A DNA stretch of 64,000 bases from Nitrosopumilus sp. (GTDB lineage: Archaea > Thermoproteota > Nitrososphaeria > Nitrososphaerales > Nitrosopumilaceae): the NCBI GenBank assembly GCA_965207445.1, contig CBDBLX010000002.1, positions 1,024,001-1,088,000 of the forward strand. The letters run 5' to 3'. How positions within the stretch are numbered: the stretch's first letter is position 1; the number at the start of each line of letters is the position of its first letter. This document shows, piece by piece, positions 17,029-27,316 of this stretch. Under the pieces are notes generated by a model. The model saw nothing but the letters and a program-made list of their open reading frames with translations, did not search any database and had not been told where the DNA came from. The translations under genes were made by a program, and so were the position numbers.

Positions 17029-18654
17029 TTAGAACACCTCCTTTGGCTCATATTTGCCAAATACGTCTCTAAACACATTACTTATCTCACCTGTTGTTGC
17101 ATATGCTTTTGCCGCATTGATGATATGTGGCATCAGATTCTCATCTGGTTTTGTCGCAGCTATATCTGATAACCTTACTAGTGCCTTTGAGCACTTGTTT
17201 GCATCTCGTGATGCACGTAATTCTTTTAGTGCCTTTTTTTGCTGTCGTTCTACTTTGTTTCCTATTCGAAGTAGTTTTGGTTGTTTTTCATCTACATCCT
17301 GATACTTGTTGACTCCGACTATTATTCTCTGCAAATCATCTGTCTCTTTTTTAAGTCTGTATGCGTTTTGTCTTATCTCTGATTGGAAGAATCCTCGCTC
17401 AATTGCCTTTACAGAGCCTCCCATCTTCCGTATCTTTTTGAGATACCGCCATACATCATCTTCCATTTTGGAACACAAGTCTTCTAAATAGTGTGAGCCT
17501 CCCATCGGGTCAACTGTTTTTGTAATACCTGACTCATGTGCCATTATCTGCTGTGTACGTAATGCAATCTTGGCAGACTCTTGTGTTGGAAGCGCTAGTG
17601 CTTCGTCACGTGAGTTTGTATGCAGAGATTGTGTACCTCCTAGTACTGCTGCCATTGTCTGAATCGCAACTCGGACTATGTTGTTGTCTGGTTGCTGTGC
17701 AGTCAATGATTCTCCGCTTGTCTGGGTGTGAAATTTCAATTGCATTGATTTTGGATTCTTTGCATGAAACATCTCCCGTAGTATGCGTGCATATACTGTA
17801 CGTGCCACTCGAAACTTTGCTATTTCTTCGAAAAACTCTATTGTACAACAGAAAAAGAATGAAAGTCTGGGTGCAAAATCATCTATACGTAATCCGCGCT
17901 CAATGCATGTCTCAATATATGCAATCGCATTTGCAAGTGTAAATGCCACCTCTTGTGTAGCGGTACATCCTGCCTCTCTCATGTGATATCCTGATATTGA
18001 TACTGGATACCATGATGGTACCTCTTTTGCACAGTATGCGATCATGTCGCCGATTAGCCGCATGGATGGTGCCGGTGGATAAATGTAGGTGTTTCTTGCA
18101 ATGTATTCTTTTAATATGTCATTTTGAGTGGTACCTCGAAGCTGTGCAGGTGTGAATCCTTGTGATTGACCTACTGTAATATAATATGCTAGTAGTGTGG
18201 ATGCTGTAGAGTTTATCGTCATTGATGTGCTGACCTTGCCAAGTGGAATGCCATCGAATGCTTGATGCATATCTTTGATTGATGTAATTGATACTCCAAC
18301 CTTACCAACTTCACCTTCTGCTTGTGGTGCATCAGAGTCATACCCTATCTGAGTTGGCAAGTCAAAGGCCATGCTGAGTCCTGTCTGTCCCTTTTCAAGC
18401 ATAAACTTGAAACGCTCATTTGTAAGTTTGGCATCTCCGAACCCAGAGTACTGTCGCATAGTCCAGAATCTATCACGGTACATTCCTTCATGTATGCCAC
18501 GTGTGAATGGATATTTACCTGCGTCTGGTACTGTATATTTTTTTGTATTATTGTGTTTGTATATGCGCTTTACCTCAAAATTAGAATCAGTGAATATCTC
18601 TTTTTTTTGCGTCTTGTCATCACTTGCATTTTTGGATACCATTGTATGTGCCAC
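17029..18654 (-). CDS. mcmA: Methylmalonyl-CoA mutase large subunit (3-HP/4-HB cycle)
   Basis: YPFTRG, WTMRQYSGFG, GTTQNDILKEY, QSLHTNSRDEALALP. Confidence 0.95.
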   Translation of the reverse strand: MAHTMVSKNASDDKTQKKEIFTDSNFEVKRIYKHNNTKKYTVPDAGKYPFTRGIHEGMYRDRFWTMRQYSGFGDAKLTNERFKFMLEKGQTGLSMAFDLPTQIGYDSDAPQAEGEVGKVGVSITSIKDMHQAFDGIPLGKVSTSMTINSTASTLLAYYITVGQSQGFTPAQLRGTTQNDILKEYIARNTYIYPPAPSMRLIGDMIAYCAKEVPSWYPVSISGYHMREAGCTATQEVAFTLANAIAYIETCIERGLRIDDFAPRLSFFFCCTIEFFEEIAKFRVARTVYARILREMFHAKNPKSMQLKFHTQTSGESLTAQQPDNNIVRVAIQTMAAVLGGTQSLHTNSRDEALALPTQESAKIALRTQQIMAHESGITKTVDPMGGSHYLEDLCSKMEDDVWRYLKKIRKMGGSVKAIERGFFQSEIRQNAYRLKKETDDLQRIIVGVNKYQDVDEKQPKLLRIGNKVERQQKKALKELRASRDANKCSKALVRLSDIAATKPDENLMPHIINAAKAYATTGEISNVFRDVFGKYEPKEVF

Positions 18655-20438: not shown

Positions 20439-21449
20439 TTATTTTAACAGAGATTTTGTTATATAATCACTTACATTAAATGGATTGGACTTACACAACA
20501 CAAGCCTGTCTATGTATTTTTGAACCGATTTATCAGAGCCAAACATTTCATCGAGTTTTATACGTGCATTTGAGATTACCATATCATACACTTCTGATTT
20601 TAGTCGCAGACGTCTCTTTGATTCTGTGTATTGTTCTTTTGATTTTACATCTTTTGCTATTTTCATGAGTGTCTTTGCAAATTTTGTTATAGTGGTGTTT
20701 TGTTTTATTGATGTTTTTAGTACGATTTTAGATGTAGTGTTGTTATGTGATTGTGTAGTGCTATTGTTTTTAGAATGTGTGCTTTTTTTATTTGCATCAT
20801 TTTGTATGTCTATCTGCTCTGCTACAAAGTCACGAATTGCATCATATAATTTATCTGCTCCTGTCAAATCTGACTTGTTGACCACATAGATGTCACCAAT
20901 TTCTGTCAGTCCTGCTTTTATTGCTTGTATACTGTCCCCTGTATGGGGGTTGAACACTACAGTTGTAATGTCTACAATCTTTGATATGTCTACTTCTGTC
21001 TGTCCTGCCCCGACACTTTCGATTATAATTGGATCAAATCCTGCATACTCGAGTATTCGTATACTGTTTCTCAAAGATGCTGATACTGCTCCTGTAGCAC
21101 CTCTTGATGCGATGCTTCTGATGTATGTTCCTGTGTCTGCTGATTCTGTCATTCTGACACGATCCCCTAGTATGGCTCCTCCTGTAATGTGACTGGTTGG
21201 ATCTATTGCTAATACTGCAGGTGTTGTACCCATACGATTCAAAGCTACTACTGTCTTGTTGATCAATGAACTTTTACCTGCGCCTGCCGGACCTGTTATG
21301 CCTATTATTGTAGAATCTGTAGTCTTTGCAAATATTTTTTTGGCTAATTTACGTGCGTCTGTAGGATTGTTCTCAATTATTGTAATTGCTTTTGCAACTG
21401 CTCCGCGTTTGCCTTTTTTAAGATCGTTTAATAGTTTTGTTATATCCAT
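20439..21449 (-). CDS. meaB: Methylmalonyl-CoA mutase-associated GTPase
   Basis: GITGPAGAGKSS, AIDPTS..TGGAILGDRVRM, ESVGAGQ, NKSD. Confidence 0.93.
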   Translation of the reverse strand: MDITKLLNDLKKGKRGAVAKAITIIENNPTDARKLAKKIFAKTTDSTIIGITGPAGAGKSSLINKTVVALNRMGTTPAVLAIDPTSHITGGAILGDRVRMTESADTGTYIRSIASRGATGAVSASLRNSIRILEYAGFDPIIIESVGAGQTEVDISKIVDITTVVFNPHTGDSIQAIKAGLTEIGDIYVVNKSDLTGADKLYDAIRDFVAEQIDIQNDANKKSTHSKNNSTTQSHNNTTSKIVLKTSIKQNTTITKFAKTLMKIAKDVKSKEQYTESKRRLRLKSEVYDMVISNARIKLDEMFGSDKSVQKYIDRLVLCKSNPFNVSDYITKSLLK

Positions 21450-23309: not shown

Positions 23310-23345
23310 CATTAATTTAAGGTAATACGTAACTATCTGGACCTG
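23310..23345 (+). repeat. Left arm of ~36-bp imperfect inverted repeat
   Basis: CATTAATTTAAGGTAATACGTAACTATCTGGACCTG versus reverse complement of 27281-27316, CATTTAAATTAGGTAAACGTAACTATTTGGACCTTG. Confidence 0.8.
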
Positions 23346-23378: not shown

Positions 23379-23960
23379 TTAAATGATCTTTTTATGTAAT
23401 GGGTCTGAAATGACTTGAATACTTGACTCTATCTTTGAAATATCTTTAACCAGAATATCTGTCAAGAGATCAAACAAATTTTCATCTTTGTGATTGTACC
23501 TAAACTCGATATACTTGCGATATAATGGGACATGTGTTTTTGGAACACCATGATATGCATACAGAAAATTTTTGGCAAACTCCAAAAACCTTCAATACAG
23601 TTTATGTACACATCATCTCTAACATATTCATCCCTACTATGAGTCACCACTTGATGTGTACTGAGCCCATCAAGTGTGCCGTATGTAGTATGTTCATCTG
23701 CACAGTACAAAGAATCTGACATAGTATGCTTTTCAATTATGGGTCTGAGTGTTTTTTGCTTTCAATTAGGCATAATAAATGTGCAAATTAGTCCATTTTT
23801 AGAATGTGTGCCAAAGACGAGTGTTTTTCCTGCAGCTCCCACACCCCGTTTTCCTTTTCGATTACCTCCAAACATTGCCTCATCCAATTCTACTTTACCA
23901 CCAAAGACGAGTTTTGAAGATGTGTCATATATGGCCTGTCTGAATAACATGAATGTTTGC
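23379..23960 (-). pseudogene. IS1595-family transposase, frameshifted and 5'-truncated
   Basis: Three pieces: GKVELDEAMFGG..KGKRG.GAAGK.LVFG; H.RDEYV...IN.IEGFWS; YHGV...H..LY...EFRYN. Confidence 0.9.
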
Positions 23961-23974
23961 TCAATGGTACAAAG

Positions 23975-24123
23975 GTATGAACCAAGCTCTTTGAATACAA
24001 TAATAAAATCACATATCTGTATTTGGTTATATCCTTACTTGAATATAGAATTCTGCATTTGTGCGATGCTTGACTCGGTACTATTTTTTAATGACCATAT
24101 CAGTCATAGAGCTTGGTTCACAC
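23975..24123 (+). mobile_element. MITE family B (copy 3, best-preserved terminal inverted repeats)
   Basis: GTATGAACCAAGCTCT...AGAGCTTGGTTCACAC 16-bp inverted repeat with 1 mismatch; abuts the truncated 5' end of the IS1595 transposase. Confidence 0.85.
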
Positions 24124-24370
24124 GAATTTTCTTTTCATATTTTATTTTTAATTGAATACATGCATCATCTGCTTTGTCTGGTCTTTTTTGACTCATGGTG
24201 TTGGTAAAGAGCTTTGATCATATATGTGTATTTATTGTTTCCACTGATTTAGATAGATTAATTTAAGTATAAAAAAATATTATCGTAAAACCTCAAAATC
24301 TAAATTATTTTATTTATTCATATTCAAATTTTAAATGAATATATCCGTCAGGAAGGTTGGTTCAGATGAT

Positions 24371-24377
24371 TTTTATA
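24371..24377 (+). promoter_or_regulatory. Candidate TATA box for the gene starting at 24399
   Basis: TTTTATA about 22-28 nt upstream of the ATG, matching archaeal leaderless spacing. Confidence 0.5.
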
Positions 24378-24398
24378 GTACGTTGGAGTCGCAGTTGT

Positions 24399-26367
24399 AT
24401 GACTATTTCATTAATTAGACAGCTGCGCGTCAAGCAGAGATCTGTTCCCTCTCAATCCCCCCCCCTCTCACACCCCACTCCATCATTCTAACGCGCAACA
24501 TCACCTTTTTACAATAATAACGCCTCTTTTACTTGCCGGAATTATAATCACAATAGTTGCAGCCGTTCCGGCAGCTGACTGGGCCGGCGCCGGCCACGGT
24601 TATGCCGTCCCCCCAATCCCCGACGACCTGAACAGGGCGGCCGTCACGTTCAACTCGCCCTCGGGCGGTGGCACCCTGATAGGGACCGTGACGCTCGAGC
24701 GCCCCGCCACCAAGCAGATGAAGTTCGCAGCCGAGATACGCGAGTGTGTTGTGGACCTGGGCAACGTCGGCAATATCCCACTCCGGTCGGCTAACATGTG
24801 CGGCAGCGACGCGCGCGCCAGCCTGGACCCCAACGACGCGGGGCGCGACTTTTCGCGCAACGTAATCTGGACGGACTCCACCAAGAGCACCGTAGCATAC
24901 TACTATATCCCGACGTACAGGACGATAACCATAGAGAAGGGCCAACAGACCGCCGACGCTACGTGGCAGACGCACAACGACGGCACGTCAAACACGCAGT
25001 CGTTCACGGTGGCGGTCACGCCCCTCACCGGGGGCCCCGTGTACGCACACCACTGGGTGGATCCGGCGAGGCCGCCGGCCGGGACGTTCATGTCCCAGCA
25101 CCACTGGAAGGCGCAGATAAACCCCCCGGTGGTGACTGTCGGCGCAAGTGGTTCCACCAACGTCGTGGAGGGCACCGAGCTCCAAGTACGATTCACCGCA
25201 GCCCCGGCTGCGAACCCGGCGATTCAATTAACCTTCTCCATCTCGGAGACCGGGGACGTTATACACTCTAGCATTGAGGGCATCCGAACCAATATGATCG
25301 AGAGCGGTCTTACCTATAGAATTACGACCCAAGGCGACAGCACCGACGAGGTCGACAGCACCGTCACGGTATCGCTGCGCGCGGGGGACGGCTACACCGT
25401 GGGCAGCCCGTCCAGCGTCACCTTCACCGTCCGCGACAACGACCCAGGCCCACTGGGCAGCGGCAGCCCCCAGCCCCCCACTACCGTCTCGATAGGCATA
25501 GCGGGCGGCGGCGCAGAGGGCGACCCCGTCTCGTTCGGCATCGGCGCGTCCCCCGCGCCCCTGTCGCCTTTGCCAGTCAACGTCACCCTTTCGGGCGCCG
25601 GGAACGTACTCAACGCCTCTGACGCGGGCTGGCGCATCGTGGAGATCCCGCCGATCGGCTCGTATACATTGGAGGTTCCGACCATAGATGACGGCGTCAT
25701 AGACGTCAACAATGTTACGCTCACGATAAACCCAGGCGCCGGCTACACGCCGGGCCAATTTGCAAGCTGGACCGTGGACGTCCAGGACGCCGGGACGACG
25801 TCAAGCCTGATGCAGCCGCCCGTGTACGACAAGCTCACCCAGGCTCAGAATCTGACGGCAGTCGCCATAGACCCAGCGCTGGTCGCCAACGTGACCGCGA
25901 TGGCGTCCCAGGTGCAGCACGGCGCAGACCATGTGGACAGGTGGAACCGCGTTCTAGCTGCCTTTGGTGAGATTGACCACTCAAACCCGATGACCGCAGC
26001 AGAGGCCCGCGACAACGCCGAGAAATACAGCAGCCCGCTGTGGCCAAAGATTGCAGACGTGCTGACATTGCTAGATGCGGCGGCAGCAGAACAAGACGGG
26101 CCGCAGACGCCGCCGGACGTACCGACTGAGCCGGACGCGCCGCCCGCCATAGACCCTGCGCTGATCAACAACGTCAGGGAGCTGGCGGCACAGACGCAGC
26201 ACGGCGATGCGCACGTCGACCGCTGGAACCGCGTGCTGGCCGCATTCGGCGAGATTACCCACGACAACCCGATGACCGCAGCAGAGGCGCAAACCAATGC
26301 AGAAAAGTACAGCAGCCCACTATGGCCGCAGATTGCAAAAGTACTAACGCAGCTTGAGTCAAGGTAG
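24399..26367 (+). CDS. GC-rich secreted surface protein (two Calx-beta/Ig-like repeats, two HVDRWNRVLAAFG repeats), frameshifted at a C9 tract (24457-24465)
   Basis: Main frame is open from 24415 through a signal-like segment LFTIITPLLLAGIIITIVAAVPAA; the upstream ATG is in another frame and C9 to C8 joins them into a 655-aa protein. Confidence 0.8.
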
Positions 26368-26438
26368 GTGTTAACCTCGTGCCTAGATTTTCACCATTTG
26401 TGTGATTTTTTTTGCCCCACCTGTTCCAAATGCTACAA

Positions 26439-26502
26439 GTCAGTATTTCGCAATGTGTTTTATATGATTTTATTTGAATAATATGCAATCTCGTTAAACA
26501 TT
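26439..26502 (+). mobile_element. 64-bp repeat family D, probable ISH3-like left end
   Basis: Near-identical to 35850-35913; CAGTA-type start; precedes an ISH3-like transposase remnant. Confidence 0.6.
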
Positions 26503-26599
26503 GATGATCATACTTGATCAAATTAAATAGAAAATACAATATATGGGGATATTCTAATACCTTTCATCATATATGAAAAATTAGGTACCAAAACATCAA

Positions 26600-27129
26600 T
26601 ATGAATTAGGACAAGTAAATTATAAAGTTTTACGAAAACGATTCGACGATCTCAGACTAAACATATCAACCAGATATAACAGCAAGTATGGTGTGAATGA
26701 TTATCTTGGTACACTTGCAACCATATCGTTCAATAACATGTGTGTAAATGCAGCAACGCACAAAAGAAAACGTAATGAGGCTAACTATTTTAGAAAAAGC
26801 GAGCGCATAAGCATCCCATCTGAAAATACTGTGCTCAAATGCCTAAAGAGTACAGATCTAGAGCAAGTAAAACAATGGGGTGACGAGAACGTCAAATGTT
26901 TAACAATGCCAGAAAATACAACATGCTCAAAAAAGGCCAAGCACTATTGCAATTGATGACTGGATGGGAATATTATGGCAAGGCACTCAAACCTGAGATG
27001 CTAAAAACAAAGCACAAAAATGGCACCGCGATTTCATTCGTTTATGACACAGCACAAGTGGGAAATCAAGCAGAACATACCTTTGTTTACACTTTACTTA
27101 CATTGATATCTAGAACTCAGTCGATTTAG
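26600..27129 (+). pseudogene. ISH3-like (IS4 superfamily) transposase remnant
   Basis: Fragments IPSENTVL..L, AIDD..EYYG and KNGT...F.Y.T in shifted frames. Confidence 0.6.
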
Positions 27130-27280: not shown

Positions 27281-27316
27281 CAAGGTCCAAATAGTTACGT
27301 TTACCTAATTTAAATG
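27281..27316 (-). repeat. Right arm of ~36-bp inverted repeat
   Basis: Pairs with 23310-23345; contains the IS66-like end CCAAATAGTTAC. Confidence 0.8.

Follow-up and report, generated by a model that had tools for sequence, protein, structure and literature searches.

The stretch of DNA analysed here (64,000 nucleotides of a Nitrosopumilus sp. genome, called the window below) carries a gene whose beginning and body lie in different reading frames. Behind a TATA-like box, the likely start codon opens a frame that stops after 30 aa, and the first 20 codons of this short frame are the leader of the full protein; the same leader also opens the in-frame proteins P0048, P0002 and P0003. The rest of the protein is encoded in a long open frame that overlaps the first one across a run of nine cytosines (Table 1). 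The body has a GC content of 64% versus 39.6% for the genome. On record, the gene appears as a 549-aa form without the signal (P0001). The TATA-like box, the 30-aa frame, the C9 and the long frame had been listed in a preliminary description of the sequence, and we recover each of them, including the lack of an ATG before the signal-like segment of the long frame. Two details that it missed concern the junction itself: compared with the closest paralog, the run is an interrupted C11 (C9-T-C), and an A is absent 8 nt downstream (at 24473/24474) that is present in the paralog and in contigs assembled from sequencing runs. The gene is flanked by dispersed repeats and by a transposase remnant, and an 18-nt inverted pair (23327-23344 and 27283-27300) brackets the whole insert of gene, IS1595 remnant and repeats.

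Table 1. Features of the locus and its neighbours (positions within the window).
Feature	Position	Strand	Remarks
Presumed methylmalonyl-CoA mutase-like gene (by eye)	17029-18654		Ordinary core neighbour
Presumed MeaB-like gene with Asn/Ser/Thr-rich insert (by eye)	20439-21449	-	Ordinary core neighbour
Broken IS1595-family transposase remnant	23379-23950	-	PF12762, E 1.3e-8 on 23465-23722
Dispersed repeat upstream of the promoter	24123-24364	.	About 17 further genome copies
TATA-like box TTTTTATA	24370-24377	+	28 nt before the ATG; spacing apparently of the leaderless type
30-aa frame from likely start ATG 24399 (OFF product)	24399-24491	+	Stop TAA 24489-24491
Long open frame, 650 aa stop to stop	24415-26367	+	Uninterrupted body
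C9 run, candidate switch	24457-24465	+	58 nt after the ATG; T-C next
Hydrophobic segment of predicted signal peptide LFTIITPLLLAGIIITIVAAV	24505-24567	+	Hydropathy 2.73 over 15 residues; translation
N-terminal beta-rich domain	24637-25023	+	P0048 residues 83-211; low-confidence model; atlas lead to Calx-beta/LapA clusters, score 0.88, a lead only
Calx-beta-like beta-sandwich	25129-25434	+	Confident part of model; Foldseek to NCX/Calx CBD1 chains 2dpk, 3e9t, 3gin
Second beta-sandwich, common to whole paralog family	25483-25779	+	Low-confidence model
C-terminal helical repeat x2 (213 nt, 75% identical), family-defining	25863-26357	+	No Pfam family over cut-off
Dispersed repeat downstream	26433-27000	.	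About 25 copies; continues past the compared stretch

What does the run do to the product? When run lengths from 6 to 12 are translated in silico, the long protein arises only from C8 (655 aa) and C11 (656 aa), as had been proposed, and by this translation the length of the run alone sets whether the gene yields a truncated or a full-length product. At 9 nt the homopolymer is of switchable length, inside the C. jejuni range of 7-13 discussed below, and it lies within the 5' coding region. Ahead of the hydrophobic segment the long frame offers no ATG, GTG or TTG (in this frame GTG first occurs at 24688 and ATG at 24718, both past that segment). Beyond the junction the gene is undamaged: the body contains no stop codon, and 626 of 636 aligned residues are identical to those of P0048, a 658-aa protein from another assembly that has the same leader in frame with the body.

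Taken on its own, a C9 is unremarkable, because the genome (G000) has four C/G runs of exactly 9 where 1.6 are expected. Runs of at least 11 are another matter, with 34 observed (lengths 11-24) versus roughly 0.08 expected from base composition, while A/T runs of at least 9 match expectation. The element of the locus that is not chance is the position of the C9, which is common to nine paralogs. Twelve loci, the window gene included, share the C-terminal helical repeat (p1352, a weak member with neither run nor helical repeat, is left out of this count), and ten of them have a C/G run of 9-19 nt between the ATG and the hydrophobic segment. Four of the ten share a C-leader with poly-C (C9 in the window gene, and C15, C15 and C12), and the others carry poly-G in three further leader types: MITTRH (G19, G11 and G14), LRTRALR (G12 and G17) and MILSRD (G13). 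The preliminary description had proposed to look for similar tracts elsewhere and for N-terminal poly-Pro in homologs; the former are thus found at the same place in nine paralogs with four leader types, and the latter as poly-Pro or poly-Gly of varying length. Selection for poly-Pro at the protein level was considered as an explanation and rejected, as internal poly-Pro uses mixed codons. Of the two remaining loci, one has a G12 placed 37 nt before its ATG and the other has no run.

Paralogs are not independent observations. In local blastn the four C-leaders are linked to each other and the three MITTRH leaders are linked to each other, with only partial links among the rest, and the ten runs therefore amount to about four independent placements and not ten. 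The run leaves four of the ten copies in frame, three off by +1 and three off by -1 (six out in total), and four in ten is compatible with one third being in frame. By pattern match, nine of the ten have a TATA-like sequence 28-33 nt before the ATG, which is the spacing of leaderless archaeal genes, and nine of the ten have no in-frame ATG between the run and the hydrophobic segment (the exception is p2346, with an in-frame ATG after its run). With the shortest run of the ten, and one that is interrupted by a T, the window copy is the least convincing case in a pattern that is strong overall.

The spread of frames bears on the possibility that the cell reads through the junction as it stands. 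Ribosomal or transcriptional slippage, or a start at CTG 24442, would give constant low expression without any change in the DNA. The CTG is indeed in frame with the long frame, p2346 has its later ATG, and there is precedent both for +1 shifting at CCC-C and for slippage of polymerases on homopolymers. The preliminary description had itself named the CTG as one alternative to a switch. However, in p2151, a paralog whose run leaves it in frame, the CTG falls outside the frame and is thus not a conserved start, and one programmed shift does not fit paralogs that are off by +1, off by -1 or in frame, with runs of C in some and of G in others. We consider recoding or an alternative start to be highly improbable.

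The gene bodies speak to a different explanation, namely that no selection is involved: a replication-strand-biased process would lengthen G runs wherever they are tolerated in repair-poor lineages, redundant and dispensable paralogs would be struck, and the window copy would be an early pseudogene. Its interrupted run, the lost neighbouring A and the mobile-element debris at its flanks are what one would expect of such a gene. Against this, the runs are always at the start and never in the GC-rich bodies, which together span 24,167 nt in the ten run-bearing paralogs, contain 47 potential seed runs of 5-7 and none longer, and have no internal stop. Nor do the copies that are out of frame look like relics. 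We counted private single-base changes over the last 310 codons, leaving out columns with gaps and those lacking a 60% majority. The six OFF copies have 9 non-synonymous and 12 synonymous changes versus a site ratio of 3.0:1, a synonymous excess with p 0.002 at that ratio and p 0.03 at a lenient one; among the ON copies the counts are 16 and 32, to which one divergent copy contributes most. The window copy contributes one change of each kind to the OFF total, so it is as a group that the OFF copies are apparently not long dead.

If the run is a switch, alleles in both states should exist. P0048, the sole other member of the P0001 cluster, supplies the ON counterpart to the OFF allele of the window, at the level of the protein and with a junction sequence that differs as well. 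Six of its ten differences from the window protein fall in the first 66 residues, and several of them are as in p2151, so leaders may have been exchanged between copies or merged in assembly. Since the P0048 junction differs and its leader resembles that of p2151, ON and OFF here are not a pure difference in run length. Other assemblies encode leaders with differing Pro/Gly counts (P0002, P0005/P0052, P0021/P0063, P0057 and P0060; proteins alone). A comparison of P0057 with P0019 adds that, in a genome with a contig of 2.32 Mb, one copy has the MITTRH leader of the G000 type and stands beside copies with that genome's own leaders; exchange between co-occurring archaea is possible, judging from the P0057 leader. 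Contigs from four sequencing runs of one sample give C13, C14, C15 and C15 on a junction of the p2151 type (one contig each; C15 is in frame), a spread that mixes merged paralog paths, may be sequencing noise, and is at most suggestive of length variation in the population.

The same material bears on whether the C9 is simply a consensus error at a homopolymer, in which case the window gene would be in frame. The assembly consists of two contigs and is likely of long-read origin, the ortholog P0048 is in frame, and the window allele (C 24403, T 24466, no A 24473) is absent from the contigs of five sequencing runs, of which four cover the C run and the fifth covers 34 nt of the leader stretch, contigs being prone to drop variants. 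However, homopolymers elsewhere in this assembly mostly keep the frame: A/T runs of at least 8 lying deep within long frames leave it intact in 90 cases and break it in 2 (312 unclassifiable), and for G/C runs of 6-10 the corresponding counts are 64 and 8 (136 unclassifiable). The allele is also set apart by two substitutions, a kind of change that homopolymer error does not produce. A consensus error at the window gene is very unlikely in our estimation, and even if true for this copy it would leave the ten runs and their position real.

Long runs are found well beyond this family, and their distribution can be read in two ways. Some fall where a bacterial geneticist would look for contingency genes. 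A G15 (L202, G000:C2:1302281-1302295) splits a restriction-modification gene with Mrr, ResIII, helicase and N6-methylase parts, in which one base fewer would give 1464 aa. An N6/N4 DNA methylase has a C12 (L203, G000:C2:985039-985050) 25 nt behind its ATG that keeps the frame, making the gene a candidate for phase variation that is now ON. Runs of G16 and G10 are at or in glycosyltransferase genes (L205 and L206; G000:C2:1817955 and 2270707), and G runs lie 37-393 nt upstream of four giant FG-GAP/fn3/NHL proteins (L207, L208 and L209; G000:C2:1527981, 863313 and 1959491; also 1477258), of which L208, a frame of 3743 aa, ends in the C-terminal block of the window family. A helicase reading of the genes behind C2:1477258 and 1527981 was rejected, the long frame being FG-GAP/fn3/NHL in the one of the two that was scanned. 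A G16 at an HSPGG motif (L204, G000:C2:1229673-1229688) breaks a frame that we take to resemble a ClpP-type protease; the fragment scanned gave no Pfam match. On the other hand, about half of the 42 runs of at least 8 in G000 are at no surface, defence or glycosyl gene, and many are intergenic or in the ends of IS66 elements (two runs are at such elements), as unselected expansion would predict. A shared motif, gtaaccg[t/c]tcaa, stands directly before several intergenic C runs (G000:C2:43262, 581870, 1189832, 1376925, 1631556 and 2472868; C1:61249) and could mark the end of a repeat or transposon at which runs are seeded.

A profile search of G000, a genome that is 96% complete, returned neither the MutS nor the MutL family, and NucS gave one partial match below cut-off. 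In a set of 150 further genomes of the genus, C11 does not occur in 92, and in 10 there are at least 50 overlapping matches; long runs therefore mark a subset of lineages.

Relatives show how far the association between runs and this family extends. The C-terminal part of the protein matched 7 of 400 genomes of the taxonomic family, in three genera; the full protein had no match in 60 drawn relatives and matched one locus in genome contigs. A 15-nt leader pattern, searched in metagenome contigs, hit 119 loci of which none was leader-like, the pattern being too short. Of 15 regions that we fetched from relatives of the three genera, 11 have a run of at least 9 at the start of the gene, and these fall mainly into two arrangements. 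In four (L248, L250, L252 and L257) the ATG, run and signal are frameshifted by one base behind unrelated leaders; the run of L252 lies within the signal peptide, L257 is a weak homolog, and in three of the four a further in-frame start follows shortly after the run. In six (L244, L246, L249, L247, L253 and L254) the run is placed just before the gene's own start, and in L244:70, L246:1074 and L249:1471 (coding-strand positions) a TATA-like pattern precedes it by 7-10 nt; L253 and L254 are duplicates of one another, carrying C13 and C9 respectively. The rest comprise an ambiguous run (L255), two regions without a run, one uncertain case and one that is garbled at an N gap. This recurrence in unrelated leaders and three genera is left unexplained by unselected expansion.

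That explanation draws its best support from six run-rich genomes of the genus (G145, G150, G152, G156, G162 and G163, picked as such), which hold 19-55 C/G runs of at least 11 each. Along their main contigs these runs form 2-5 same-strand blocks (p <=7e-4), which can be read, from sequence, as replication-linked expansion; such expansion favours the neutral account and may equally supply the raw material for switches. In G000 itself strand segregation is not significant (15 blocks of 33, p 0.24). Among 60 sampled runs (the first ten listed from each of the six), 23 are intergenic with no start nearby, again as an unselected process would have it, and 28 are at or near a start, most of them upstream of the ATG and not inside the frame. 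Half of these 28 belong to genes with a hydrophobic N-terminus versus a baseline of 215 of 1513 in G000 (nominal p 8e-6, inflated by paralogs). With the intact OFF copies and the confinement of runs to gene starts on the other side of the balance, we judge it unlikely that expansion without selection accounts for the window gene and its paralogs.

What would such a switch control? The structure model, built on P0048, has a mean pLDDT of 54.5 and is confident for the beta-sandwich at residues 247-348 and for the two helical repeats. Foldseek places this beta-sandwich with 2dpk, 3e9t and 3gin (TM-score by target 0.60-0.65, rmsd 3.6-4.6, 115-122 columns), and E-values are similar for transglutaminase and other beta-sandwiches. 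The Calx-beta-like fold is thus found on the model and not by profile: PF03160 is not detected in the window protein at E up to 1 or 0.1, nor is any Pfam family over cut-off, and a PDB sequence search with the protein gave nothing under E 0.19. More distant homologs help here, as many of a set of 25 carry PF03160 or PF20579 and match mainly residues 240-470. The likeness to Calx-beta and LapA-BapA repeat proteins therefore consists of a beta-sandwich matching Calx CBD1 and of bacterial homologs with both families over the matched region, whereas the window protein itself has no Pfam match to either and has, at its C-terminus, a pair of helical repeats assigned to no named family. An atlas search with the helical repeat gave no usable match; other organisms have it too, in Calx-beta/BapA proteins (P0023-P0047), one of them source-named Rhodobacter. 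The hydrophobic N-terminal segment and the extracellular-type folds predict exposure at the surface, and we describe the protein as a predicted secreted, Calx-beta-like protein. The preliminary description had called it adhesin-like; the predicted secreted beta-sandwich fits the surface part of that label, and the protein may serve in adhesion.

Putting these observations together, we think it probable that the window locus is a case of pilC-type phase variation in an archaeon, in which the run would switch reversibly. The in-frame allele and the runs in nine paralogs support the earlier reading of a contingency locus that is currently OFF. By this model, the C9 between the start codon and the predicted signal peptide would set the frame and act as a slipped-strand on/off switch, now OFF. 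The mRNA would be leaderless and begin at ATG 24399, and consequently no other start would rescue export. Replication slippage without MutS and MutL would change run length frequently, and the ten run-bearing paralogs would switch independently to give a population with mixed subsets of related surface proteins. Such subsets could be a form of bet-hedging towards the host, viruses or an attachment niche, with selection for heterogeneity. By analogy with C. jejuni, the window copy would turn on slowly, and its run, interrupted and shorter than those of the other nine, would make it slower to switch than any of them.

The arrangement is like that of pilC1 and pilC2 of Neisseria gonorrhoeae, paralogous surface/adhesin genes in which a G/C homopolymer (poly-G) in the signal-peptide coding region sets the frame, as given in the available part of the source (PMC13017665). 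It differs in its archaeal host, in having ten copies versus one or two, in using poly-C and poly-G behind unrelated leaders, in its likely leaderless mRNAs and in a protein unrelated to PilC, and it is known here from sequence alone. Phase-variable genes of Campylobacter jejuni belong to surface structures, glycosyltransferases and restriction-modification, classes that recur among the runs of G000. The C. jejuni genome likewise has dozens of long poly-G/poly-C runs, and the portion of the study at hand gives, for a 9-nt run, 0.001 insertions and 0.0002 deletions per division (PMC8224891, Table 2). Compared with the runs of 7-13 described there, the archaeal runs are longer (mostly 11-24) and about half fall outside such gene classes; length 9 favours insertion in C. 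jejuni, whereas the window copy needs one deletion or two insertions.

Surveys of 5'-biased tracts, with archaeal genomes included, have also read 5' placement as a signature of reversible inactivation (PMC2831843; PMC3315296, both as far as their accessible text goes). In the former, which covers 18 archaea, the bias is described, in the text available, for poly(A) and poly(T) tracts of 5-8 nt and is stated to be absent for poly(C), for poly(G) and for tracts longer than 8, whereas here long G/C runs sit on one gene family; the accessible text of the latter names bacterial species for an N-terminal homopolymer excess. A 2025 review, in the part at hand, leaves the distribution of phase variation across archaea to future work (PMC11868660), and the available text of a preprint states that contingency loci are known in archaea with a 1987 repeat survey as its sole archaeal citation (10.1101/2025.10.21.683753). 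Our search of the full-text literature, mostly judged from abstracts and with most subscription journals and supplements outside its scope, did not turn up a description of a comparable system for this archaeal group. What this analysis adds is an in-frame allele of the window gene at 98% identity, a sign of selection among the OFF copies, the finding that the family's runs recur across three genera and in two wirings, and the strand bias.

More broadly, and as a tentative proposal that could well prove too ambitious, we suggest that host-associated ammonia-oxidising archaea may possess a full bacterial-style phasome. Long G/C runs, supplied by a replication-strand-biased process, would repeatedly have been taken up by one Calx-beta-like family of surface proteins, behind unrelated leaders and in no fewer than three genera, alongside switches of restriction-modification and glycosyltransferase genes. 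In this joint proposal, one wiring would be the frameshift switch between ATG and signal peptide, whose ten loci would allow up to 1024 surface combinations, and the other a run of variable length separating the TATA box from the start, through which leaderless transcription would be tuned. The names attached to homologs put the organism in Nitrososphaerota/Thaumarchaeota. It probably has an animal host; its gene content, of a kind counted as typical of sponge association, suggests a sponge habitat.

Two consequences follow for the study of these archaea. Gene callers miss or truncate such proteins, as the recorded form of the window gene illustrates, and the secreted-protein inventories of such genomes are therefore undercounted. 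Furthermore, phase variation in archaeal symbionts becomes directly testable on named loci with existing reads. Multi-locus phase variation has been described almost only in bacterial pathogens and commensals; if the runs reported here do switch, an archaeon would be hedging its surface, its glycans and its methylation in the way that Neisseria and Campylobacter do.
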